Shown: positions 319 through 62,151 of the stretch, piece by piece
Position numbering within the stretch: the stretch's first letter is position 1
Layout: each line of letters opens with the position of its first letter
Source of the DNA: a virus
IMG/VR virus record: IMGVR_UViG_3300029319_000004
Location: 116,712-180,711 of that record
Reading direction: 5' to 3' (one strand)
Length of the DNA: 64,000 bases
Made by a program: the position numbers and the translations under genes
Notes under the pieces: generated by a model
Told to the model about the DNA's origin: nothing
The model's database searches: none
The model's input: the letters and a program-made list of their open reading frames with translations, nothing else

Positions 319-352
319 ACCCCGCCTGTTCATTCAGGCGGGGTTTTCTTTT
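319..352 (+). terminator. Rho-independent terminator after capsid gene
   Basis: CCCCGCCTG-ttcatt-CAGGCGGGG stem followed by TTTTCTTTT. Confidence 0.9.
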
Positions 353-8753: not shown

Positions 8754-8783
8754 AGGAGGGCTAGCGCCCTCCTTTTCTTTTTT
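8754..8783 (+). terminator. Rho-independent terminator
   Basis: AGGAGGG-ctagcg-CCCTCCT then TTTCTTTTTT. Confidence 0.8.
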
Positions 8784-16926: not shown

Positions 16927-18099
16927 ATGCTTTTTCAAACGCTTGATAACAAAAGGGAGTGTTATGCAGTCTACTCCGATGGAGAGCTTTATCACTACCC
17001 TAATAATTTACACATGACGGAAACTTGGGATTGGACATGTCACGCTCCGCCTAATGTTGACTTTGCACAAGTGTGGTGTAACGGAAAAAGTCTAAGTGAG
17101 GTATGCCCGGAAGAACTTAAAATTAGTTTACAGCATATCCAAAATAAAGCTCGGGCTTTTTTTAAATCATTTCAATCTTCAAAAATATCAATGGATGATG
17201 TGTGCTTTTATGATTTAGTTCCAAAAAATTTTTTGTTAGATTATTGCAATATTAAAAATGAAATATCTAAGCATGTTTTTTCTAGCTACCAAAAACCAAA
17301 AAACTATGACTTTTTAGTTGAGCTTGTAGAGATGCTTGATGATATATCTTGTCACACGTTGAACTTTGACCACACAAGACTATCATCATTATCAGCAGCC
17401 GAGCACAAAAAAGCATTGGCGTGCAATAATTTAAAAAAAATATTTTATAATCCATGGGGTAGTGTTACGGGACGGCTAACCACGAGACCTAATAGCTTTC
17501 CAATACTAACACTGCCTCGTACTTTACGCTCAGGCCTGACTCCAAACAATGATCTTTTTGTTGAGCTAGATTACAATTCTGCAGAGATGAGAACAGCGTT
17601 TGCTCTTCTGGGGATGCAGCAGCCGGAAAATGATATTCATGATCATCTTAAAAGCGAGGTCTTCAATGATAAGCTTAGTAGGGATGAGGTTAAACAGAAA
17701 GTTTTTGCTTGGCTTTATAATCCAAAAGCTAGCAATAAAAAATTGCAAAAGTTTTTAGAGAAAGAAAAGATTCTAGAAAAGTATTACACGTCTGGAATTG
17801 TTAAAACTCCATTTGATCGCGACATACAAGTTGAGCCAGAAAAAGCATTGAATTATCTAGTTCAAAGCACCACTAGTGATTTGTTCCTAGCACAAGCTAT
17901 CAAGATATATAATATGCTTAAAGATAGCAACTCTCATATTGCTTTTTGCATCCATGACAGTTTAGTGCTAGATGTTGAAAGATCTGATAGGCAGTTGGTG
18001 TCAAAAATAATCTCTGTCTTCTCACAGACACCGTATGGTCATTTTAAAACAAACGTCTCTTTTGGTAAAGATTTTGGCACTATGAGGAAAATTAAATGA
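16927..18099 (+). CDS. Short family-A DNA polymerase (polymerase domain only)
   Basis: TGRL; motif A ELDYNSAEMR; motif B RDEVKQKVFAWLY; ALNYLVQST; motif C IHDSLV. Confidence 0.85.
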   Translation: MLFQTLDNKRECYAVYSDGELYHYPNNLHMTETWDWTCHAPPNVDFAQVWCNGKSLSEVCPEELKISLQHIQNKARAFFKSFQSSKISMDDVCFYDLVPKNFLLDYCNIKNEISKHVFSSYQKPKNYDFLVELVEMLDDISCHTLNFDHTRLSSLSAAEHKKALACNNLKKIFYNPWGSVTGRLTTRPNSFPILTLPRTLRSGLTPNNDLFVELDYNSAEMRTAFALLGMQQPENDIHDHLKSEVFNDKLSRDEVKQKVFAWLYNPKASNKKLQKFLEKEKILEKYYTSGIVKTPFDRDIQVEPEKALNYLVQSTTSDLFLAQAIKIYNMLKDSNSHIAFCIHDSLVLDVERSDRQLVSKIISVFSQTPYGHFKTNVSFGKDFGTMRKIK

Positions 18100-18944
18100 A
18101 TGTGATAGGTTTAGGAGAGGCAGGCTGTAAAATATCTCATTATCTTAGCAAATATGATGATTATCAAACATTTCAGATCGATGTAGAAAATAAGCAATAT
18201 GATAATTTTATAAAAATTAAAAAATTAGATAGCCATGAAGATTATGAAGCAAAGTACAAGCCTTTAAAAATAAATGTTGCCAATGGGCTTGATACGTTTT
18301 TAATACTGTCGGGTGCTGGTGCAATATCTGGTGCTGTTCTGAGAATATTAGAGCAGCTAGACAATAACAATGTTAAAATTATTTATATAAAGCCTAGACT
18401 CTCAGAGCTTTCCAGCTTGCAAAAGACTCGCCATAGAATTGTAAGTCAAGTGCTGCAAGAATATTGTAGATCTGCAAAACTAAAAGAGTTTACAATTATC
18501 GATAATTCTCTGATTGAAGATTTATTGCCAGAGATACCGCTTGATGATTATTGGAGCCCAATCAATCAACTTATAGGTGATACATTCCACATGATTAACT
18601 TTTTTAATAAAAGCGAGCCTCTTTTGAAGAGTAGTAATGCTGTGCCTAAAACTGCAGTCATGTCGACTTACTCTTTAGTTGACTTTTCAAACATGCAGGA
18701 AAAAAAATTGTACGATTTATCTTTCCCCAGAGCAAAAAGTTATTATTTTGCTCTAGGAAAGCAGTTTATTAAGGATAATAAAGACATTTTGACACAGGTA
18801 CGACAATTTATATCTTTGAATGACAGTGAAAACTGTGATTGCTCTTATGAGATTCATCAGACTGATTACGATCAAAACTATGTGTATGGATATCACTATG
18901 CAAGTTTTATTCAGGAGCAAGATAAAAACTTGTTTACAAGTTAA
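18096..18944 (+). CDS. Divergent tubulin/FtsZ-family protein
   Basis: N-terminal VIGLGEAGCKI (GxGxxGxxI); degenerate signature LSGAGAISG; IIDN; DDYW..IN. Confidence 0.7.
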   Translation: MNVIGLGEAGCKISHYLSKYDDYQTFQIDVENKQYDNFIKIKKLDSHEDYEAKYKPLKINVANGLDTFLILSGAGAISGAVLRILEQLDNNNVKIIYIKPRLSELSSLQKTRHRIVSQVLQEYCRSAKLKEFTIIDNSLIEDLLPEIPLDDYWSPINQLIGDTFHMINFFNKSEPLLKSSNAVPKTAVMSTYSLVDFSNMQEKKLYDLSFPRAKSYYFALGKQFIKDNKDILTQVRQFISLNDSENCDCSYEIHQTDYDQNYVYGYHYASFIQEQDKNLFTS

Positions 18945-19023
18945 TAAAGAGTGTTTATTATATTAACTGCAGATAGTTGGAATATTTGCCAGCTATACTA
19001 TACCTTAAATAAAGGAGATAACA

Positions 19024-19764
19024 ATGGGTATTGATTTAACAAAAATGAAGGCAAAGCGCGATGCCTTAGAGAATCGCGACACCGGTAAGACCGTTTTTTG
19101 GCGACCGGAAGATGGTGAACAAACTATCAGGATTCTACCGCCCTCAGATGGAGACCCCTTTAAGGAGTATTGGTTCCATTACAACTTGGGCAAGAATGCT
19201 GGTTTTCTAAGTCCTAAGAAGAACTTTGGCGAAGATGATCCGTTGAACGATTTCATTCGTCAGCTCTTCAAGGATGGCTCTGAAGAGTCGGTCAAGATGG
19301 CTAAGAACCTCTCAGCGCGCCAGCGCTTCTTCTCTCCTGTGATTGTACGTGGAGAGGAAGAAAAAGGGCCGCGGCTGTGGGGTTTTGGCAAGATGGCCTA
19401 CAAGGAGCTTCTGAATCTCGTCCTCAACCCAGAGTATGGTGATATTACTGATGTGACTGAAGGCACTGACCTTGTTATTAATTATGGCAAGCCAGCAGGT
19501 GCACAGTTCCCTCAGACTACTATCACCCCTCGTCGTCGTCCTTCTGTTCTCTCTGAGTCTGAGGACGAGATTCGTACTTGGCTAGACGGTATTCCAGATG
19601 CGGATGAGGTGTTCGAGCGTAAGACGCCTGAGCAGGTTCAATCGATGCTAGATGAATTCTTGCTCGGCGCCGGCGATGCGGAAGAGACCTCAACAGAGGC
19701 TACCCATTACGGTAATTCCACTACGCAAGTTGACAAAGCTTTTGAGGAGCTTCTCGGAACCTAG
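19024..19764 (+). CDS. Single-stranded DNA-binding protein (T4 gp32-like)
   Basis: FWRP..GEQTIRILP, DPF.EYWFHY, R.FSPVIVRGEE..G..LWGFGK, YGDITD..EG.D; acidic tail. Confidence 0.9.
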   Translation: MGIDLTKMKAKRDALENRDTGKTVFWRPEDGEQTIRILPPSDGDPFKEYWFHYNLGKNAGFLSPKKNFGEDDPLNDFIRQLFKDGSEESVKMAKNLSARQRFFSPVIVRGEEEKGPRLWGFGKMAYKELLNLVLNPEYGDITDVTEGTDLVINYGKPAGAQFPQTTITPRRRPSVLSESEDEIRTWLDGIPDADEVFERKTPEQVQSMLDEFLLGAGDAEETSTEATHYGNSTTQVDKAFEELLGT

Positions 19765-19770
19765 CGCATC

Positions 19771-19802
19771 ACCGCAGGGAGGCACGGGTTACAGGTGCCT
19801 CA
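19771..19802 (+). ncRNA. Conserved structured RNA element (H-type pseudoknot candidate), copy 1
   Basis: ACC-GCAGG-GAGGCAC-G-GGT-TACAG-GTGCCTC; near-identical copy at 60580 with compensatory changes. Confidence 0.65.
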
Positions 19803-19830
19803 TTTTTATTTAATACTTCTAGTTATTTGT

Positions 19831-20148
19831 ATGGAAGTGTTGCTTCATGCGCTCGTAACCGCGTCGGTGTTTTTACTAGGTGTAGTAGCCGGTGCTCTAA
19901 TAGAGAATGCAAGAATGAAGTATCTAGATAGATTAAAATATCTTGAAAAAACAACACAAGAAATTCTTTTGCCTCTTGCAAACAAGATAAGTCATATAGA
20001 TGCTAGACAAAATTTTAGGCCTCCAGTGAGAGAAACATGGGTTGATTATGAAAAACTAGACCCAGACGAAACACTGGAGTTGCCTAAAGAATATCTAGAA
20101 CAGTTAAACTCAAGAGGTAAAAATGGCGAAGGCAAAGAAGTTAGGTAA
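19831..20148 (+). CDS. Membrane-anchored hypothetical protein (N-terminal TM helix); same frame as SSB
   Basis: MEVLLHALVTASVFLLGVVAGALIE; no SD; frame open back to the SSB stop codon. Confidence 0.7.
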   Translation: MEVLLHALVTASVFLLGVVAGALIENARMKYLDRLKYLEKTTQEILLPLANKISHIDARQNFRPPVRETWVDYEKLDPDETLELPKEYLEQLNSRGKNGEGKEVR

Positions 20149-21238
20149 GCTAAATTTATCAGAGATGCGCAATCTGATTAATAAAAAAGCTGGTATGGAT
20201 GTTGCGCACAATTTAACACAAGATAATCCAACGGAAGTAAAAGACTGGATCCCAACAGGTTCTAGGTGGCTTGATAGTATTATCTGTCGAGGCAAGCCGG
20301 CAGGAATCCCTGTAGGAAAAGTTGTAGAAATCGCTGGACTTGAAGGATCGGGCAAGTCTTATATGGCTGCTCAAATTGCTGCCAATGCTCAGAACAAAGA
20401 CATTGATGTTATTTATTTTGACTCTGAGTCGGCTATTGATCCTACTTTCTTGAAAAATGCTGGTTGCGATCTTGAGCGGCTGCTCTATGTACAAGCTCAG
20501 AGTGTTGAGTTTGTTTTAGAAACAATCGAGGAACTTTTAGGCTCTAATGACAATAGAATGTTGTTTGTCTGGGATAGTCTAGCTCTGACTCCGGCGATCA
20601 GTGATGTTGATGGAGACTTTAACCCTCAGTCATCAATGGCTATGAAGGCTAGAATTTTAGCTAAAGGTATGTCTAAATTGACTGTTCCGATTGCGAACTC
20701 ACAATCAACTTTCTTAGTTCTTAACCAGCTTAAGACCAACATTCCTCAAGGCCCAGCTGCTCGAATTGAGGCTATGACCACTCCTTATATAACTCCCGGT
20801 GGTAAAGCTATGCATTATGCATATTCTCTAAGAATTTGGCTTACTGGTAGGAAAGCAAAAGCTAGCTATATTCAGGATGATCATGGATTTAGAATTGGCT
20901 CTGAAGTAAAGGTTAAACTTAAAAAGAGTCGCTTTGGTACTGAAGGGCGAGAGTGCACTTTTAAAATTGTTTGGGCTGGCAGTGTTGGCATCCAAGACCA
21001 AGAATCTTGGCTTGAGGCTGTAAAGGGATCTAGTAATATCGTTCAGCGAGGCGCCTGGTATGAGCTAGTGTACGAAGATGGTACAACTGAAAAATTTCAA
21101 GCAGCCAAGTGGCTAGAGAAACTTCAAAGTGAGAAGTTTAAAGATAGGGTTCTTCAAATTATGGATGAAGAAATTATCATGCGCTTTGAGAAAAAAGAAG
21201 GCAATGCTGATGATTTCTACAATGTTGATCCCGAATAA
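20123..21238 (+). CDS. recA: RecA/UvsX recombinase
   Basis: IPTGS..LD, GKVVEIAGLEGSGKS (Walker A), YFDSESA, FVWDS, NQLK, TPGGKAM.Y..S.RI. Confidence 0.97.
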   Translation: MAKAKKLGKLNLSEMRNLINKKAGMDVAHNLTQDNPTEVKDWIPTGSRWLDSIICRGKPAGIPVGKVVEIAGLEGSGKSYMAAQIAANAQNKDIDVIYFDSESAIDPTFLKNAGCDLERLLYVQAQSVEFVLETIEELLGSNDNRMLFVWDSLALTPAISDVDGDFNPQSSMAMKARILAKGMSKLTVPIANSQSTFLVLNQLKTNIPQGPAARIEAMTTPYITPGGKAMHYAYSLRIWLTGRKAKASYIQDDHGFRIGSEVKVKLKKSRFGTEGRECTFKIVWAGSVGIQDQESWLEAVKGSSNIVQRGAWYELVYEDGTTEKFQAAKWLEKLQSEKFKDRVLQIMDEEIIMRFEKKEGNADDFYNVDPE

Positions 21239-21277
21239 ACTCGCTTACTAGCCATCTTTTGTGTCTATAATATAGGC

Positions 21278-21721
21278 ATGCCAACAACGTTACAAAAAAA
21301 TCATACCAATATTGATGGCGTAGATGTAGACTTGTCCAAAAGACAAAAGCGTTTTTTTGAGCTTGCAAGAAATATTGCCCATGGCAGCAGCTACGATAAG
21401 TTGCGCCATGGTGCAGTCCTTGTGCGAGGAGGGTCTGTTATTAATGCAGCTTGCAATAAAGACAAATTCTCTTCTTTTGGGTCTAGGTTTCGCTCTCCTG
21501 ACACGGGTCTAGGAACACACCATGCTGAGCTAGGTTGTGTTTTAGGAATATCTCGTGAGGTGACATCAGGCGCTGATATTTATGTTTGCAGGGTAAATAA
21601 AAAAAATGAGTTTAGACTTAGCAAGCCCTGTCAAATGTGTCATGATATCTTAAAACACGTTGGCGTTAAAAGAGTATATTACACAACTGATAGTGGAAGT
21701 GTAAAAATGTACAAACTTTGA
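21278..21721 (+). CDS. Cytidine/dCMP deaminase-like zinc protein
   Basis: HHAELGCV (HAE) and SKPCQMC (PCxxC); HGAVLV; GVKRVYY. Confidence 0.85.
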   Translation: MPTTLQKNHTNIDGVDVDLSKRQKRFFELARNIAHGSSYDKLRHGAVLVRGGSVINAACNKDKFSSFGSRFRSPDTGLGTHHAELGCVLGISREVTSGADIYVCRVNKKNEFRLSKPCQMCHDILKHVGVKRVYYTTDSGSVKMYKL

Positions 21722-21752
21722 ACTATTTATTAAACTCAAAGGGGAGAGCATT

Positions 21753-22085
21753 ATGGACAGTCTAAAATCAGTTGTTAAAGAATACCTAAGAGACACTCTT
21801 TACGAGGCAGATGTTGTAATGAGAAGTGATCGATCAAAGCGATTGACACTAATTACTGACAACCTTAGAGGGATTTGTGGGATTACAGTATGCACTGTGA
21901 AAGAAGCAGCAAAGAAAGTTTCTAAGACTGTTGAAGTAACGCCTCTTAAAATCAAGTTTCACATGGTTGAGCCAAACATGCAAAGGCAATTAGCTAGGAT
22001 GCAGATAGAGGCTCGAAAAATTGATGGAATATACTCTTTTATCGCGACAAAAGTTGGAAAGGTTAAAAACAGAATTTATCGCTAA
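21753..22085 (+). CDS. Hypothetical protein preceded by late motif
   Basis: ORF with SD GGGGAG; ACTATTTA at 21722. Confidence 0.65.
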   Translation: MDSLKSVVKEYLRDTLYEADVVMRSDRSKRLTLITDNLRGICGITVCTVKEAAKKVSKTVEVTPLKIKFHMVEPNMQRQLARMQIEARKIDGIYSFIATKVGKVKNRIYR

Positions 22086-22097
22086 TAAGAGGTTAGA

Positions 22098-23084
22098 ATG
22101 AAAAACGAAGGACGTATGCTGATTATTGATCAGCTTAACTTATTTTTTCGAAACTATATTGTAAATCCAAGTCTTTCACTTCAGGGCCAGCCTATTGGAG
22201 GCCTCCGTGGTTGCATTCAGAGTTTGCAAAAGCTAGTTCGTGAAACAAATCCTGATATGATTGTTGTTTGCTGGGATGGCGCAGGCGGCTCAAAGAAGAG
22301 AAAGCTTCTACAGAAAGATTACAAAGCAGGCCGAAAGCCTATCCGTCTGAATAGAGCAGTAAAAAACTTGTCGGAACAACAAGAAGTTGAAAATAAAATC
22401 TGGCAACAGATGAGGTTGGTTGATTATTATAATCAATTGCCAGTCCTGCAGTTTATGTTTGATTCAACCGAGGCAGACGACATTATTGCACACATAAGTC
22501 AGGACGCTCGTTTTAAAAACTGGCAGAAAATTATTGTGTCAAGCGATAAAGATTTCTTTCAACTCTTAAACGAGAGCACGGTTTTAATGCGTCCTATTCA
22601 AAAAGAAGTATTAAATAAAAATTCAATCATTGATAAATTTGATATTCATCCGACGAATTTTGCTATGGCCCGTGCGCTAGTAGGCGACAAATCTGATAAT
22701 ATTGAAGGCATCCCAGGCCTAGGTCTAAAAACTGTTGCAAAAAGATTTCCAATATTTAAAGATGAGAAGTCTGTGACTTTTTCTGATCTCATATCTTTTT
22801 GTAAAGAGCGCTTAGAAGATAGCAACATTAAGGCATACAAGAGTGTCCTAGACAATGAAGATGTCATTAGAAACAACTACCATATGATGCAGCTTTACAC
22901 TCCATTAATGTCTATTAACAGCAAAAACCTTGTATATGAAACTTTAGCCAACCCAGATATGTCCTTTAATAAGACAGGGTTAACAAAAATGATGCTCAAA
23001 GATGGATTTGGGGAAATCAACTTTATCGACTTATTTGCACATTGTAAAAAGATTTCTGTGTACAATAAGCAAGATTGTGCTTAA
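22098..23084 (+). CDS. 5'-3' exonuclease / flap endonuclease (Pol I N-terminal or T4 RNase H-like)
   Basis: LIIDQLNLFFR, VVCWDG, YKAGR, EADDIIA, SSDKDFFQL, GDKSDNIEGIPGLG.KT. Confidence 0.95.
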   Translation: MKNEGRMLIIDQLNLFFRNYIVNPSLSLQGQPIGGLRGCIQSLQKLVRETNPDMIVVCWDGAGGSKKRKLLQKDYKAGRKPIRLNRAVKNLSEQQEVENKIWQQMRLVDYYNQLPVLQFMFDSTEADDIIAHISQDARFKNWQKIIVSSDKDFFQLLNESTVLMRPIQKEVLNKNSIIDKFDIHPTNFAMARALVGDKSDNIEGIPGLGLKTVAKRFPIFKDEKSVTFSDLISFCKERLEDSNIKAYKSVLDNEDVIRNNYHMMQLYTPLMSINSKNLVYETLANPDMSFNKTGLTKMMLKDGFGEINFIDLFAHCKKISVYNKQDCA

Positions 23085-32055: not shown

Positions 32056-35000
32056 ATGGAACGAACTAAATCATCTATCCCGTTTGTTGGTCTTCATGCG
32101 CACAGTGTCGCAGGATCAGTATTCGATGGATTCGGCTATCCGCAAGATCATATGGATTTTGCTTATCAAAACGGCATGGGCGCGCTCGCCCTTACAGACC
32201 ACGGCAACATGAATGGAATGTCATATCAGGTTCTTCACGCTAAGAAAATGAAGTCTGAGGGCAAATCGTTTAAGCCTATTTTTGGCGTAGAGGCCTATTT
32301 TGTGCCCTCAATCTCTGAATGGAAAGAAGAGTATGAAAAGGTTAAAGCCGACAAGAAACAAGCCAGAAAGATTATTAATGATACTGACAAGGTTGAGGCC
32401 GAGGACGAGAACGCTTCAAAAAGCAAGACAAAAAGCAAGATTAACTCATATGGTCACATTGTTCTTTTGGCTATGAATCAAACTGGGCTTAATAATATTT
32501 TTAAGATTGTCTCCGACTCCCATCAGGGTGACAGCTTTTATAGAAAGCCTAGGCTAGACTATGACATGCTCAAGAAGCATGGCGAAGGCATCATTGCTTC
32601 TTCTGCCTGTCTTGGTGGTGTATATGCTAGAAATTATTGGGACAATCGAGATAATGGGGATGATGCTGTTCTTGAAGCTATGAGGAACACAACATCAAAT
32701 ATGATCGACTGTTTGGGCGATAGATGGTATGGCGAGCTTCAGTGGAACAATGTACCAGAACAGCATGAGCTTAACAAGTTTGTCATTAAAATGCATGAAG
32801 AATTTGGTATTGAGCTTGTTTCCACAGCGGACAGTCACTATCCAAATCCTGAGGCGTGGAAAGACAGAGAACTGTACAAGCGTCTAGGATGGCTAGGATC
32901 AAAGCTGCCAGAGTGGGCTAGCACTGAGCTTCCTGTTTCTGTCGAAGAGGTTGGCCATGAGCTTTACCCAAAGAACGGCGATCAAATGTGGGAGTCGTAC
33001 AAACGCTACTCAAAGCAGTGCAACTTCAAATACGATGATGATCTTGTGCATGATTCGATTACTAAAACACACTGGATCGCCCACGAGAGAATCGAAGACT
33101 TTATGCCGGATGATACTGTTCGTCTGCCTGGCTTCGTGGTACCAGATAATGTAGAGGCCTCAGAAGCTCTTATCAAAGAAGCAATCTCTGGTCTAAGAAA
33201 GATGTCTCTGCAAGAAAACAAGGCATACGTTGACCGACTCAAGGAAGAGTTGCTTGTTATCAATGAGCGTGGCTTTGCAAAATACTTCTTAACCATGAAG
33301 GCTGTATCAGACAAGGCTAATGAGCATATGCTGTCTGGCCCAGGCCGAGGATCCGCCGCCGGCTCGCTCGTTGCCTATGTGCTTGGGATTACTCAGGTCG
33401 ACCCTATTAAGTATGGATTATTGTTTAGTCGGTTCTTGCGTGCAGACGCTACTGACTATCCCGACATTGACTACGACGTCAGTGACGCTTTTGGTCTCAA
33501 GGAGATCTTAGCTAAAGAGTGGGGAGAGACAACCGTTGTACCTATTTCCAACTTTAACACCTTGCAGCTTAGATCGCTAATCAAAGATATTAGCAAGCTT
33601 TATGATGTGCCCTTTACGGAAGTAAATGCCGTCACCGGAAAGATGGTGCGCGAAGCTACGCCAAAAGCAAAAGCAGATCATGGCATTAAGGCTGGAGTGT
33701 ATGCTCCAACATTTGAAGAGGTTATGAAATATTCAGAATCGCTAATCCGATTCCTTACAAAATATCCGCAGATCAAAACTCATGTTGAGGCGCTTGTTGG
33801 GCAAGTTAGGTCAACTAGTCGTCATGCTGGCGGTGTTGTTATTGGCGAGAACCTAGATAGACATATGCCTCTTATTTGTTCAGGCGGCGTACTTCAGACT
33901 CCATGGTCCGAAGGCATGAACGTGAGACATCTTGAGCCCTTAGGTTTTATTAAGTTTGACATCTTGGGCCTGTCAACACTAGAGATGATTCAGTCGGCTG
34001 TTGGTCATGTGCTTAAAAGGCATCACGGTATTGAAAACCCAAGCTTCGCAGACATTAAGAAATACTATGATGACAATCTGCATCCTGACTCGATCGATCT
34101 CAACGATCCGAAAGTTTATAAAAATATCTTTCACAAGGGTAAGTTTATGGGTGTATTTCAGTTTACAAACGCTGGCGCTCAGAGATTCTGTATGAGATCG
34201 AAGCCTAATAACATTATTGATATTTCTGCGATTACATCGATCTACAGACCAGGGCCTCTTGGTGCCAACGTTGACAGGAAGTATGTCAAGGCAAAGAATG
34301 ACCCAGAGTCAATCCAGTATGTAAATGATGTTATTGAGGAAGTGACTAAAGAAACAGCAGGCTTTTTGATCTTTCAAGAGCAGATTGCTTTGCTAGCTCA
34401 CAAGTTGGGCCATGACATTAGTTTGGATGAGGGCAATAAACTTAGAAAGCTTTTAACCAAGAAGGGGACTGGAAAAGGTGCTGAAGAGAAAGAAGTTATC
34501 AAGCAAAAATTTATTAGAGGCTGTGTTGCTAAGTCAATCGATCGATCAACCGCCTCGTCACTCTGGGACAATTTTGAGTATTTTTCTGGCTATGGCTTTA
34601 ACAAGTCTCATGCTGTTGCTTATAGTATCCTTTCTTTCCAGTGTGCTTGGCTCTTGAACTATTTTCCGGAGTGCTGGGCAGCTGCTTTCCTTGATAAGGA
34701 GCCTGAATCTAGAAAAGAGGCAGCGATTAGTTTAGCTCAGAAGAATGGTTTCTATATTCAAAATGTGGATATCAATACTTCTACAAGTCAGTGGGAGATC
34801 TCTGATGACGGTGAGACCCTGGTGCAGCCTTTGAGTTCTATCAAAGGACTAGGCGACAAAGCTATTGATCAGATTATCATGCATAGGCCATTCAGTACCG
34901 TAGAGGATCTTTTATTCAGTAAAGAAATTGTTTATTCAAAGCTAAATAAAAAAGCTCTTGACGTTCTGTGTCGTTCAGGCGCACTAGATTCTTTATCCGA

Positions 35001-35484
35001 TGAGCGCTTTACCGGATGCAAACATCTTTGGATGTCTTGTGTGCAGGATAGACCTAAAAACCCTAAGAAGCTGGCAGAGAATATTAAGCTATATGCCCCA
35101 GAGGCTGACTTTTCTGTGGAGGAAAAGATTGATTATGTTTCTTCTCTTACTGGAATCTTCCCTTTTAATCTAGTCATGACGCGGGAGATTCGTGAATCTA
35201 TCAACAGGCACTGTGTGCCAGCACTTGGTAATTGGGATGATGACTTAGGAGTGGCTTGGTTTGTTCCAAGAGAGATTATTCCTAAGAAAACTAAGAACGA
35301 CAAGCTGTACTGGCTTTTGAAGGTGACAGATGAAACTTCGGCTAACATTACAATCAAGTGTTGGGGTATCAGGCCTGATGATCAAGTTCATCTCAACAGG
35401 CCGTATGCAGCCAAGCTAGATCATAGCAGTGAGTGGGGGTTCAGCACAAGATCAATTCGCCATAACTTTAAACTACTGGGATAA
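32056..35484 (+). CDS. dnaE: DNA polymerase III alpha subunit (family C)
   Basis: PHP domain (LHAHS, ALTDHGNM, TADSHY); GRGSAAGS; PDIDYD; SRHAGGVVI; KFDILGL; FSGYGFNKSHA. Confidence 0.98.
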   Translation: MERTKSSIPFVGLHAHSVAGSVFDGFGYPQDHMDFAYQNGMGALALTDHGNMNGMSYQVLHAKKMKSEGKSFKPIFGVEAYFVPSISEWKEEYEKVKADKKQARKIINDTDKVEAEDENASKSKTKSKINSYGHIVLLAMNQTGLNNIFKIVSDSHQGDSFYRKPRLDYDMLKKHGEGIIASSACLGGVYARNYWDNRDNGDDAVLEAMRNTTSNMIDCLGDRWYGELQWNNVPEQHELNKFVIKMHEEFGIELVSTADSHYPNPEAWKDRELYKRLGWLGSKLPEWASTELPVSVEEVGHELYPKNGDQMWESYKRYSKQCNFKYDDDLVHDSITKTHWIAHERIEDFMPDDTVRLPGFVVPDNVEASEALIKEAISGLRKMSLQENKAYVDRLKEELLVINERGFAKYFLTMKAVSDKANEHMLSGPGRGSAAGSLVAYVLGITQVDPIKYGLLFSRFLRADATDYPDIDYDVSDAFGLKEILAKEWGETTVVPISNFNTLQLRSLIKDISKLYDVPFTEVNAVTGKMVREATPKAKADHGIKAGVYAPTFEEVMKYSESLIRFLTKYPQIKTHVEALVGQVRSTSRHAGGVVIGENLDRHMPLICSGGVLQTPWSEGMNVRHLEPLGFIKFDILGLSTLEMIQSAVGHVLKRHHGIENPSFADIKKYYDDNLHPDSIDLNDPKVYKNIFHKGKFMGVFQFTNAGAQRFCMRSKPNNIIDISAITSIYRPGPLGANVDRKYVKAKNDPESIQYVNDVIEEVTKETAGFLIFQEQIALLAHKLGHDISLDEGNKLRKLLTKKGTGKGAEEKEVIKQKFIRGCVAKSIDRSTASSLWDNFEYFSGYGFNKSHAVAYSILSFQCAWLLNYFPECWAAAFLDKEPESRKEAAISLAQKNGFYIQNVDINTSTSQWEISDDGETLVQPLSSIKGLGDKAIDQIIMHRPFSTVEDLLFSKEIVYSKLNKKALDVLCRSGALDSLSDERFTGCKHLWMSCVQDRPKNPKKLAENIKLYAPEADFSVEEKIDYVSSLTGIFPFNLVMTREIRESINRHCVPALGNWDDDLGVAWFVPREIIPKKTKNDKLYWLLKVTDETSANITIKCWGIRPDDQVHLNRPYAAKLDHSSEWGFSTRSIRHNFKLLG

Positions 35485-39012: not shown

Positions 39013-39046
39013 AAAAAGGCAGGGAATTTTCCCTGCCTTTTTTTTT
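39013..39046 (+). terminator. Rho-independent terminator (probably bidirectional)
   Basis: AAAAA-GGCAGGGA-attt-TCCCTGCC-TTTTTTTTT. Confidence 0.92.
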
Positions 39047-59502: not shown

Positions 59503-60573
59503 ATGGCTATCGATTTCAAGACTTTTACTTCTGTCGCCCCCCATGTCCTCGCGGTCAAGAAGCCGCTTATGCTCCGTGGTCGTCACGGTGTAGGCAAGTC
59601 TGAGCTTGTCTATCAGGTTGCATCCACTATGGATCTTCCTGTCGTTGAGCGTCGCGCATCGCAGATGACTGAGGGCGACCTCGTTGGCCTTCCTCGCACG
59701 GATGGCGACGTGACTTCGTTTTGTGCGCCTGACTGGCTGGACGAGTGCTGCAACAACGCACGCTTGCTCTTCCTCGATGAGGTTGACCGTGCCATTCCAG
59801 AGGTGCGCCAGGGCATCTTCGAGCTTACCGACTCTCGCAAGATTTTCGGTAACTACCTCCACCCCGATACCGTCGTGATTGCTGCCGTCAACGGTGGCGA
59901 GCATGGCTCACAGTATCAGGTGGGCGAGATGGACCCTGCGGAGCTTGACCGCTGGACCGTCTTCGACGTGGAGCCTACGACCGAGGACTGGCTCGACTGG
60001 GCCAAGGGCAACGTGGCCACTGAGGTCTGGGACTTCATCAACCAGAACCGCTCTCACTTGGAGCATGGCGAGGACTATGAGCCAAACAAGGTTTACCCTT
60101 CGCGACGTTCTTGGAAGCGTCTGAACGATTGTCTCGTGTCCGCTGGGATGCTCGGTGTCGAGGACCACAACCCTGTCATCTTCCACCTTGCCACTGGCTT
60201 TGTCGGTTTCGAGGCTGCTGTATCCTTCAACGACTTCGTGAAGAACTACGAGCGACAGGTCACGGTCGAAATGATCCTCGATGATGGCAAGGTCAATAAG
60301 ACTTCTGACTTTAACATCAATGAGCACTGCGCTCTCATCGAGAAGATGGAGTCCGTCGAGGCTTTCAACGAGCCACTCACTGATGATCAGTGCAAGAACC
60401 TTGCCAACTACTTCGTAGCGCTCCCCTCCGAGGCTGTCATGAAGTTGTGGCAGGTGCTTGGCAAGGGCAACATCGACAACGTGACCAAGTTTCACAAGGC
60501 TCAGGCCGACAATGGCGAGACGGTCGCAGGCAAGCTAGTCACTATCCTGACTGGCAAGTCGAATGAGTCATAG
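59503..60573 (+). CDS. MoxR-type AAA+ ATPase
   Basis: GRHGVGKS Walker A, GDLVGLP, LLFLDEVDRA Walker B, IAAVN, MDPAELDRW, PSRRSW. Confidence 0.95.
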   Translation: MAIDFKTFTSVAPHVLAVKKPLMLRGRHGVGKSELVYQVASTMDLPVVERRASQMTEGDLVGLPRTDGDVTSFCAPDWLDECCNNARLLFLDEVDRAIPEVRQGIFELTDSRKIFGNYLHPDTVVIAAVNGGEHGSQYQVGEMDPAELDRWTVFDVEPTTEDWLDWAKGNVATEVWDFINQNRSHLEHGEDYEPNKVYPSRRSWKRLNDCLVSAGMLGVEDHNPVIFHLATGFVGFEAAVSFNDFVKNYERQVTVEMILDDGKVNKTSDFNINEHCALIEKMESVEAFNEPLTDDQCKNLANYFVALPSEAVMKLWQVLGKGNIDNVTKFHKAQADNGETVAGKLVTILTGKSNES

Positions 60574-60579
60574 GGCTCA

Positions 60580-60611
60580 GGCGCAGGGAGGCATGGCTCA
60601 CAGATGCCTCA
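60580..60611 (+). ncRNA. Conserved structured RNA element (H-type pseudoknot candidate), copy 2
   Basis: GGC-GCAGG-GAGGCAT-G-GCT-CACAG-ATGCCTC. Confidence 0.65.
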
Positions 60612-60870
60612 ACTCTTTGAAATCATGGAGGTTTCAAATGCTATAACTACTAACTTATTGATTTTATTATAAAAGCTCCCAGCAGCGACGATGGAGCCAA
60701 GGTATTGGACCCGCACTTTTTGCCTGTAAGTGTGCGGAATGTAAGAAAAAACCAAAACAGGATAGCACGGTCGCTCTGCTAGAAAACGACCCTTCGCTGC
60801 TTTTTTTATTTACTCTGCACGTTACGTGCCTATGTTGCTTGTGTACCCAACGACGACGACGGAGGACACA

Positions 60871-62151
60871 ATGTCCGACTTCAATCTTAACGACCATGTT
60901 TACCGACTTCTTCAGTCGGAGCCCTTCTTCGCTGCACTCTCGCGGCGCATCGAGAAAAAGATGAACAAGTCCATCCCGACCGCTGGTGTGCGCGTCAACG
61001 AGGATGGCTACTTTGAGATGGTCTACAATCCAGACTTCTTCGAGCCACTCACCGACAAGCAGCGCGCTGGTGTGCTGGTCCACGAGTTCTATCACCTCGT
61101 CTTCGAGCATGTCACTGGTCGTCTTCCCGATGAGCTAGCCGGTGTCATGCAGGGCAAGCCTTCGCCTGAGCAGGCGCAGAAGTTCAAGCTGTGGAACATC
61201 GCAGCAGATCTCTCTATCAACTATCATATCGGCGCAGACAATCTGCCTGAGAAGTGCTGCATCCCTGGCGGTCCTATGTTCGAGGACATGCCCGGTGACA
61301 AGACCGCTGAGTGGTATTACGACAAACTGATTCAGAAGGTCGAGGAGCAGCAACAGCAGAGTCAAGGCCAAGGCGAACCAGGCGAGGGTGACGGTCAGGG
61401 CGGAGGCTCAGGCACACCCGGTGACCAGCCATTCGATCCTGATGCAGCAGGCCAGTTCGACTCGCATGACGAGTGGGGCGAGGGTCAGGCCAATGAGATC
61501 GCCCAAGAGGCCCTGGACATCGCCAAGGAGCGACTCAAGGAGGCCGTGAAGGATGCTGCCTCGGAGTCATCCAGCAAGGGCTGGGGCTCCGTCTCTGCGT
61601 CCTGCCGCAAGGAGATCATGGAGCGTCTCACGTCCAAGGTTGACTGGCGCAAGGTGCTTCGCTACTTCGTCAAGACCTCGCAGCGTGCCAACAAGCGCAG
61701 CACGCCCAAGCGCCTGAACCGTCGCTACGCCTACGTCCACCCAGGTCGCAAGGTCAATCGCACTGCCAACATCGCAGTCAGCATCGACCAGTCTGGCTCT
61801 GTGTCTGACTCCATGCTCGCTGCCTTCTATGCTGAACTGAACAAACTGGCAGACCTTGCCACATTCACCGTCATTCCCTTCGACACCCGCGTCGCAGAGG
61901 ACAAGGTGTTCGTTTGGAAGAAGGGCCAGAGTCATCCTCAGAAGCGCTACATGTACGGCGGAACCTGCTTCAACGCTCCCACTGAGTACGTCAACAGCAA
62001 GGGCAACTTCGACGGTCACATCGTCCTGACGGACATGGAGGCCCCTAAGCCCAAGCCCAGCAAGTGCCAGAGGATGTGGATGACCACGAGCTATCACGCG
62101 CAGCGTCCCTACTTCGCAACCAGCGAGCGCATCATCGGCATTGATGAATGA
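60871..62151 (+). CDS. Metallopeptidase-like (HExxH) plus vWA domain protein (DUF2201-type partner of MoxR)
   Basis: PTAGV, YNPDF, VLVHEFYHLV, WNIAAD..IN, IDQSGS (MIDAS), FDT, GGT.F, VLTD. Confidence 0.92.
   Translation: MSDFNLNDHVYRLLQSEPFFAALSRRIEKKMNKSIPTAGVRVNEDGYFEMVYNPDFFEPLTDKQRAGVLVHEFYHLVFEHVTGRLPDELAGVMQGKPSPEQAQKFKLWNIAADLSINYHIGADNLPEKCCIPGGPMFEDMPGDKTAEWYYDKLIQKVEEQQQQSQGQGEPGEGDGQGGGSGTPGDQPFDPDAAGQFDSHDEWGEGQANEIAQEALDIAKERLKEAVKDAASESSSKGWGSVSASCRKEIMERLTSKVDWRKVLRYFVKTSQRANKRSTPKRLNRRYAYVHPGRKVNRTANIAVSIDQSGSVSDSMLAAFYAELNKLADLATFTVIPFDTRVAEDKVFVWKKGQSHPQKRYMYGGTCFNAPTEYVNSKGNFDGHIVLTDMEAPKPKPSKCQRMWMTTSYHAQRPYFATSERIIGIDE

Follow-up and report, generated by a model that had tools for sequence, protein, structure and literature searches.

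Among described systems, the one closest to the element reported here is the autoregulatory pseudoknot of gene 32 in phages T4, T2 and RB69, a translational operator for which there is no Rfam model. In T4, a pseudoknot of ~28 nt is followed by an unstructured UUAAA-rich tract that reaches the ribosome-binding site (PMC535899), an arrangement that can also be read directly in the T4 sequence. The gene 32 mRNAs are the most stable mRNAs of T4, and RNase E cuts them, as it cuts the E. coli rpsO mRNA, close to the stop codon; in rpsO, ribosomes shield the RNase E site near the stop (PMC3014915). T4 gene 32 also ends with a GC hairpin and a U run. To our knowledge, the gene 32 operator is so far the only viral pseudoknot linked to a single-strand DNA-binding protein (SSB). 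Phage-only RNA signals of another kind are lambda nut and HK022 put, which occur about twice per genome; they lie in early operons, just behind a stop codon, close to terminators and before replication genes. A catalogue drawn from IMG/VR contains 8,495 candidate structured RNAs, which are unnamed (PMC10690425).

The element was found in a window of 64,000 nt, i.e., the last 64 kb of a complete 180,711-bp virus record of IMG/VR with direct terminal repeats. The presence of a tail sheath gene identifies the phage as a myovirus, and the large genes in the window all lie on the + strand. They include a fragment of a family A DNA polymerase and the genes of a gp32-like SSB, a RecA/UvsX-like recombinase and a 5′–3′ exonuclease; also encoded are a DnaB-like helicase, a class II ribonucleotide reductase and a DnaE-type Pol III alpha (32056–35484). 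The order PolA, hypothetical protein, SSB, RecA and 5′–3′ exonuclease (window 16927–23084) is common to Flavobacterium phage vB_FspM_immuto (Immutovirus), the closest cultured relative, whose gp32 is only 38% identical. Our own terminator scan of the whole 180.7 kb returned only five strong + strand sites with a perfect-stem hairpin and a U run, at window positions 320–343, 8755–8772, 19779–19801 and 39018–39037, with the fifth upstream of the window. Such sites are so few that the transcription units are probably very long.

A sequence-only reading of the window had described two 32-nt copies of a pseudoknot 41 kb apart, each six nucleotides past a UAG and located behind an SSB gene and a MoxR-type ATPase gene, respectively. 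The sequence confirms this description: both 32-mers are present exactly, on the + strand at 19771–19802 and 60580–60611, and each begins 6 nt after the TAG that closes a long open reading frame (ORF). In copy 1, the two strands of stem 1 are ACC (19771–19773) and GGU (19787–19789), and those of stem 2 are GAGGCAC (19779–19785) and GUGCCUC (19795–19801), a pairing scheme backed by the covariation in the family alignments A2 and A3 described below. The remaining parts, read from the sequence, are loop 1 (GCAGG, 19774–19778), the single base of loop 2 (G, 19786), loop 3 (UACAG, 19790–19794) and a conserved A at 19802. Copy 2 is built in the same way, with stem 1 formed by GGC (60580–60582) and GCU (60596–60598), stem 2 by GAGGCAU (60588–60594) and AUGCCUC (60604–60610), loop 1 (GCAGG) at 60583–60587, loop 2 at 60595, loop 3 (CACAG) at 60599–60603 and a terminal A at 60611; no U tract stands behind its stem. 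The copies differ at six positions with compensatory changes in both stems, as had been stated: the loop-closing pair of the 7-bp stem changes from C-G to U-A, the 3-bp crossing stem changes from C-G to G-C and also from A-U to G·U, and the remaining difference is one unpaired loop base.

Minimum-free-energy folding returned the 7-bp hairpin from both isolated 32-mers and from copy 1 with its flanks; for the flanked copy 2 a different fold was favoured. The folding z-scores are modest (−2.9 for a 51-nt copy 1 segment, about −1 for copy 2), so that folding on its own proves little. A fuzzy search of the whole 180,711-bp genome found no third copy. A covariance model built from relatives, a check that the sequence-only reading had itself proposed, matched exactly these two sites in the whole genome, i.e., copy 1 at 19766–19803 with 56.5 bits (E = 5e-12) and copy 2 at 60575–60612 with 49 bits, the next match reaching only 9.3 bits. 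Given the two-only outcome of the fuzzy search, the covariance-model scores and the recurrence of the motif in other IMG/VR contigs, the similarity of the two copies is not due to chance.

Copy 1 follows the gp32-like single-strand DNA-binding protein gene (19024..19764, + strand; PF08804, E = 2.4e-10). A U/AU-rich, G-poor tail that begins with UUUUUAUUUAAUA (19803..19830, +) reaches from the element to the AUG of the next ORF, and together with stem 2 it constitutes one of the five strong hairpin and U-run sites on the + strand, with a stem of −11.5 kcal/mol followed by A-UUUUU-A-UUU. The first cistron past copy 1 is a 105-aa ORF (19831..20148, +), the translation of which has one N-terminal hydrophobic helix, and the RecA/UvsX-like recombinase gene comes next (20123..21238, +; PF00154, E = 7e-35). 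A Shine–Dalgarno sequence is absent from the 105-aa ORF; CUAGUUAUU stands a few bases before its AUG (window 19820–19833) and is conserved in relatives. Inspection by eye for a promoter in or near copy 1 found a TTGACA in the 3′ end of gp32 without a −10 partner, and the gp32 leader in the window has no comparable pseudoknot fold.

Copy 2 follows the gene of an AAA_5 (MoxR/CobS-like) ATPase (59503..60573, +; PF07728), and the same gene junction bears the motif in L026, L086 and L098. Beyond it lies a conserved non-coding stretch of ~260 nt (60612..60870, +), with 90% mean identity in a three-contig alignment. The following DUF2201/VWA gene probably starts at the ATG at 60871, which has GGAGG 5 nt upstream, rather than at the GTG at 60826. 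The predicted fold of this stretch has a hairpin at 60616–60638 and a long-range helix closed by CGCUGC and followed by U7 (~60681–60809). The z-score is 0, and the structure is unproven. Within the stretch we also note a mini-ORF of the form GGAGG-N6-AUG-sense-UAA and a multi-branch region with a CAGCAGCG/CGCUGC closure before the U7. The stretch may be a small RNA or a leader.

Further members of the family were collected from IMG/VR with a pattern made up of the core GCAGGGAGGCA, 11 unspecified bases and TGCCTC, which occurs in at least 118 contigs; nearly all core matches bear the entire motif, including the bases left unspecified in the pattern. Loci gathered separately via gp32 homology contributed variants with altered stems. 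About 150 distinct copies from IMG/VR viral contigs were aligned (A1–A3), A2 holding 75 copies with a 9-nt loop and A3 holding 73 copies with a 10-nt loop. Stem 1 was left unconstrained by every search pattern.

These alignments bear directly on the earlier proposal that compensatory changes preserve an H-type pseudoknot, for which covariation of the 3-bp stem among homologs had been suggested as a check. Both stems covary in the ~150 copies, and the proposal is upheld. In A2 (n = 75), the stem 1 pair 6-24 is A-U in 33 copies, C-G in 28, G-C in 7, U-A in 4 and G·U in 2, with one copy unpaired, i.e., all four Watson–Crick types occur at one position; the pair 7-23 is C-G in 59 copies and G-C in 16, and the pair 8-22 is C-G in all. 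A fourth stem 1 pair is present in approximately half of the A2 copies. Of the stem 1 cells in A2, 94.9% are paired, a value that falls to 37–52% when the 3′ partner is slid by 1–2 columns (18–54% for slid registers of the pseudoknot stems), and a covariation score as high as that observed in A2 was reached in none of 500 shuffles. Stem 2 in A3 (n = 73) switches between G-C and A-U at positions 1 and 2, between G-C and G·U at position 4, between A-U and C-G at position 6 and between C-G and U-A at position 7. A structure-blind scan, which used only the unpaired conserved bases, found stem 2 to be fully complementary (7/7 pairs) in 57/61 cases. We caution that the stem 1 type tracks the gene junction, so that many cells share ancestry and the independent compensatory events are fewer than the counts suggest; for stem 1 they number at least four or five. 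A G·U wobble occurs in the middle of stem 2 in 22/73 sequences of A3, and stem 1 has G·U as well. These pairs are seen only when the + strand is read, indicating that it is the sense strand that folds, with the mRNA as the most plausible molecule.

The set of invariant bases comprises the final C of stem 1, the whole of loop 1 (GCAGG), the two G past the 5′ arm, the A-G that ends loop 3, and the centre of stem 2, where G, G and C pair with G, Y and C; the A-Y ahead of the terminal A-G is conserved in ~90% of copies. In sum, ~15 of 32 bases are invariant, and we know of very few small RNA folds that are conserved as strongly. The suggestion that the loops are conserved beyond what a terminator needs is well supported, both being invariant or nearly so. 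The criterion for an H-type fold is met, in that loop bases pair outside the hairpin and both helices covary. Loop 1 crosses the 7-bp stem 2 with 5 nt, loop 3 crosses the 3–4-bp stem 1 with 4–6 nt, and the junction has 1 nt; such loop lengths are sufficient to span the stems. It is near certain that the element is a cis-acting sense-strand mRNA element, namely a compact H-type pseudoknot of 32–34 nt. It comprises a stem 1 of 3–4 bp, a stem 2 of 7 bp, a one-base junction G and a loop 3 of the form (U)(U)A-Y-A-G, and the GCAGG of loop 1 is predicted to run along the deep groove of stem 2; base triples are predicted for loop 1 in the major groove and for loop 3 in the minor groove. A divergent member, L323:8076–8112 in the 70.8-kb phage G007, lies ~165 nt past a bacterial-type SSB gene and has a 16-nt hairpin loop (GCCC-A-GCAGG ... 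GGGU ... AUAG), which indicates that loop 3 is expandable.

The view that the element is not a named RNA family agrees with the searches: in Rfam 15, no model matches over the element even at E ≤ 10, and only tRNAs pass at the gathering score. No match was found among 50,697 GenBank phage records by megablast and short-query blastn. Full-text searches of the literature yielded no description of the core sequence or of such a pseudoknot, and the element may be one of the candidates catalogued in PMC10690425. For bacteria, one genome from each of 185,579 prokaryote species was scanned with a 17-base core pattern; the 123 matches listed are close to the chance expectation (~140 by our own estimate), and among the matches listed 0/123 have the GG...ACAG loop. 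The motif is rare in bacterial genomes; its absence from them is not established. Among phages, the copy number is 1–3 per genome. Five related records of 158–203 kb, four of them at least 95% complete, have one or two copies each, and five viral records of 36–71 kb (50–98% complete) without a gp32 homologue have one copy, in a single case with one divergent copy in addition. In the smaller phages, 0/9 element-adjacent genes are held in common with the window genome, showing that the element crosses phage groups. It is an undescribed family, i.e., a cis-acting H-type pseudoknot at a cistron boundary; H-type pseudoknots as a class are already known.

The genomic surroundings were analysed in 163 distinct contexts, which share ancestry. 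The element lies on the strand of its flanking genes in at least 160 of the 163, and stem 1 begins 5–13 nt past the stop codon in 146/160 contexts (91%), with a mode of 6–9 nt. From stem 2 to the next start, the median distance is 26 nt (IQR 22–32). The upstream gene is gp32 in 76 contexts; the other upstream genes encode a small ORF, an Hc1 histone-like protein, an FKBP isomerase, the AAA_5 ATPase or an unknown protein of ~450 aa. RecA is the commonest downstream gene (46/163), besides a small membrane ORF, FKBP, Hc1, a ResIII/DEAD helicase, DUF2201/VWA and UDG. Among the distinct gp32 loci, the element stands directly 3′ of gp32 in 41/70 and upstream of it in 0/70; it is directly 5′ of recA in only 17/63. 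Where gp32 abuts a small ORF, the element is placed after that small ORF. Some relatives (L160, L169–L177) have an ordinary GC hairpin and U run at the gp32 3′ end instead, and in Flavobacterium phage immuto the SSB and RecA genes abut and the element is absent. Among the contexts found without gp32 (n = 89), 71 have an SSB-type gene in the locus, which lies within 3 kb in 69 (78%); in seven of these SSB-linked contexts, from smaller phages, it is a bacterial OB-fold SSB (PF00436). The core is identical near the bacterial-type SSB in 57–71-kb phages without gp32, and one smaller phage has the order 453-aa ORF, element, helicase, ORF, SSB and divergent element.

The tails behind stem 2 are all G-poor. 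At least five U in eight bases occur in 53% of contexts and three U or fewer in 25%, the U-poor tails being CA- or AU-rich. The stop codon before the element is TAA in 55% (82/149), TAG in 39% and TGA in 6%, compared with 42/20/38% for the other long ORFs of the same loci; since the contexts share ancestry, the test of this bias is not rigorous. The frame beyond the stop closes at a median of 21 codons, and ahead of the end of the fold in 31/149 contexts. Both window copies follow a TAG (19762–19764 and 60571–60573), the codon that closes only 14% of the genome's long ORFs.

In some relatives, up to three pseudoknots ~250–430 nt apart bracket single small ORFs between gp32 and recA, which encode Hc1 histone-like proteins, FKBP or membrane peptides (L193:4009–4658, L060:7562–8129, L102:4832–5485, L129:869–1513). 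By analogy with the PeSL cassettes discussed below, these ORFs look like cassettes shuffled by recombination between the repeated elements. In 39/163 contexts, e.g., L126:3749–3756 and L181:4432–4439, the spacer that separates the stop from stem 1 is occupied by a C-rich tract (CCUCC, CCCCC, CCCUCA), for which the GGAGG in the 5′ arm of stem 2 would be a possible pairing partner. As an antiterminator, such pairing was not retained, since 38 cases of at least 5 bp were observed vs. ~25 expected in shuffled flanks, which is not clearly above expectation.

We note both resemblances to and differences from the gene 32 pseudoknot of T4, to which no known element comes closer in its architecture and its genomic neighbourhood. 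As in T4, the fold is of the H type and compact (~30 nt), with a stem 2 of 7 bp, the 5′ arm of which leads almost directly into the 3′ strand of stem 1, and it occupies an intercistronic gap just past the upstream stop (PMC535899; PMC3014915). It is likewise tied to an SSB gene, and a tract that is A/U-rich in part of the family leads up to the next start. However, three features keep the element out of the T4 class: its position, the design of its loops and its sequence. In T4 the pseudoknot precedes gene 32, whereas the present family follows the SSB gene and never precedes it; loop 1 measures 1 nt in T4 and has five invariant nucleotides (GCAGG) here, and the sequences are not similar. In addition, the family core also occurs near SSB genes of an unrelated family and at sites remote from every SSB gene. 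With regard to the UUAAA/UAAA tract of T4, the G-poor tails of the family show UUUAAAAUUUAA in some subfamilies and CA-rich sequence or plain U runs in others. The T4 gene 32 analogy drawn by the sequence-only reading is thus acceptable as a loose one of architecture and neighbourhood, and fails for placement, for the loops and for a link to one kind of SSB.

Other known systems share less with the element. Like intrinsic terminators and 3′ stabiliser hairpins, it has a GC-rich hairpin straight after the stop, with a U-rich tail in about half of the copies; unlike terminators, its loop bases pair with the 5′ flank in a covarying manner, its loops are invariant across distant phages, 25% of the family copies have no U tract, and the other terminators of the same genome are ordinary hairpins. 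A parallel to the PeSL cassettes described in T4-type phages (PMC2839356) is that, in some relatives, cassettes of small ORFs are flanked by copies of the element; PeSLs, however, combine a promoter with a stem-loop and occur in many copies in hyperplastic regions, whereas the element has only 1–3 copies per genome and no attached promoter, and no conserved promoter was seen in the flanks. The element behaves in part like an intrinsic terminator or a PeSL, both of which lack its conserved tertiary fold. The element resembles recoding pseudoknots, e.g., that of MuLV UAG readthrough and the luteovirus triplex frameshift signal, in its H-type fold, its start 5–9 nt past the decoding site and its short loops, which suit groove triples; it differs from them by a closed downstream frame, stops that are mostly UAA, a bacterial context and the lack of a suppressor tRNA. 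In comparison with lambda nut and HK022 put, the family is similarly phage-only, low in copy number and located past a stop codon, whereas the fold is another one, a terminator-like hairpin lies within the element, and an N-like factor and boxA were not found. Small pseudoknot riboswitches (preQ1-I/II, SAM-II/V, guanidine-III) have a similar size, an H-type fold and many invariant bases; however, none matches by covariance model, and the element lies 3′ of genes without a consistent downstream pathway.

The fold, its conservation, position, copy number and gene association are observed; termination, nuclease resistance and stabilisation are inferred. We tentatively favour the possibility, without calling it probable, that the element caps abundant messages of the replication module, the SSB message among them, at a 3′ end that protects itself, and that it terminates them in part. 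Where a U tract exists, stem 2 and the U-rich tail would bring about partial intrinsic termination. Stem 1 and loop 1 would fold the naked linker between stop and hairpin back onto the hairpin, and the footprint of the terminating ribosome should cover the remaining spacer of 5–13 nt, so that no single-stranded RNA would be left between the ribosome and the 3′ structure for an endonuclease such as RNase E. A triplex-braced stem would resist 3′-to-5′ exonucleases, and the outcome would be a long-lived upstream message that is insulated from the next cistron. This model is suggested by the tighter tie to the end of gp32 (41/70) than to the start of recA (17/63), by the plain hairpin and U-run terminators that replace the element at the equivalent position in some relatives, and by the terminator-like character of copy 1 (one of only five strong sites) and of the 53% of the family with at least five U in eight. 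Of the readings considered, it covers most of the observations; it would explain the narrow stop spacing, the independence from the U tract and the abundant DNA-binding proteins among the upstream genes, and it fits the RNase E weak point beside the stop codon (PMC3014915). The identical core beside unrelated SSB families argues for a self-contained fold or for a host machine as its partner. However, 25% of copies, copy 2 included, have three U or fewer after the stem, and termination thus cannot be the common function. The 15 invariant bases out of 32 also go beyond the obvious need of a passive roadblock and are typical of a specific binding site; the hosts apparently lack the motif, which is odd for a generally useful stabiliser; there are only 1–3 copies per genome although many genes must be highly expressed; and the avoidance of UGA (6% vs. 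38% background) remains unexplained. The molecular steps of the cap model are inferred without transcript ends, half-lives or nuclease assays from any member.

The main rival of the cap model is a regulatory site that a factor or a ligand recognises. The element could be a phage-specific sensor or recognition module that binds the SSB, an antiterminator, a host machine (RNA polymerase, ribosome) or a metabolite and thereby gates the passage of transcription (as read-through) or of translation beyond the SSB cistron, towards genes of recombination and replication, a possibility that we consider doubtful and yet keep in play. That a trans-acting protein recognises it and sets how much expression passes the junction appears rather unlikely to us, and there are no binding data. 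Such a site could be an SSB-responsive translational operator as in T4 gene 32, with the pseudoknot nucleating SSB binding on the unstructured tail up to the next ribosome-binding site, or a signal of the nut/put kind, through which RNA polymerase would be modified at the terminator next to it. The loops and the centre of the stem, being invariant, do resemble a binding surface, the copy number is 1–3 per genome, and an SSB gene lies within 3 kb in 69/89 pattern-found contexts. Between the fold and the next start there is a G-poor tail, rich in U, AU or CA, which puts the start at a median distance of 26 nt; recombination and repair genes (RecA, ResIII helicase, UDG) lie downstream, and the T4 operator likewise is a pseudoknot, of ~28 nt with a 7-bp stem 2, behind which in T4 an unstructured UUAAA-rich tract extends up to the ribosome-binding site (PMC535899). 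However, the element is upstream of the gp32 gene itself in 0/70 loci, a distance of 41 kb separates copy 2 from gp32 and one of 260 nt separates it from the next start, and no N-like protein was identified. An operator specific for one SSB is further weakened by the identical core in phages with gp32-type and with bacterial OB-fold SSBs, the gp32-lacking 57–71-kb phages carrying it beside the bacterial type. We regard it as improbable that the pseudoknot senses a small molecule, as a new class of riboswitch embedded in a terminator, or that it is a self-cleaving ribozyme of minimal size between cistrons. The size, the ~15 invariant bases and the covarying periphery resemble aptamers of the preQ1-I or SAM-II type, and in about half of the copies stem 2 could also serve as the hairpin of a terminator; however, Rfam has no riboswitch or ribozyme model that matches, even at E ≤ 10, the element is 3′ of genes with heterogeneous downstream genes, and alternative (antiterminator) pairing is not significantly enriched.

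The remaining readings carry much less weight than the cap model. The analogy with retroviral-type readthrough, also raised by the sequence-only reading, would make the element a stimulator of stop-codon readthrough or recoding, e.g., for a fusion of the SSB to a membrane anchor in the window phage. The stop spacing of 5–9 nt equals that of recoding pseudoknots, both window copies follow UAG, which is enriched before the element (39% vs. 20%), and in the window the frame past the gp32 UAG is open into the 105-aa ORF. However, TAA is the commonest preceding stop (82/149), the frame closes at a median of 21 codons and in 31/149 contexts before the fold ends, at orthologous gp32 loci the next ORF lies in another frame or behind stops, and the genome has no suppressor tRNA; readthrough is rejected on these grounds and is hardly credible. 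It is very unlikely that the conserved molecule is DNA rather than RNA, i.e., a priming site, an origin or a pause site that acts as single-stranded DNA on the template of the lagging strand. Low copy number and the constant location in the replication module, by SSB, helicase and primase genes, would suit such a signal, but the G·U wobbles in the middle of stem 2 (22/73) and in stem 1 are benign in RNA and destabilising in DNA, and the strict sense orientation, the placement between stop and start and the frequent U tract fit an mRNA element. We give equally little credence to an anti-defence RNA decoy, such as a pseudo-ToxI-like mimic of a type III antitoxin, or to two ordinary terminators related by duplication. 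The phage-only occurrence across unrelated phage types and a size like that of ToxI units would be compatible with a decoy; however, tandem repeats are absent, only single units occur, and no bacterial motif arrays are present among the 123 core-pattern matches listed. The hairpin and U run of copy 1 do look like an ordinary terminator, but ordinary or duplicated terminators, like chance similarity, are excluded by the stem 1 covariation, the invariant loops and the family-wide covariation.

The element has so far been found in uncultured phages only and is tied to the SSB genes of two unrelated families. As a 3′ end cap, it would be a compact and portable part that stabilises and insulates mRNA, and an example from the bacterial world of a nuclease-resistant pseudoknot. 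As a recognition site, it would point to an unknown regulator of phage replication and recombination genes. If the sensor or recognition reading is true, the single known case of T4 gene 32 would be generalised to a widespread, portable element.
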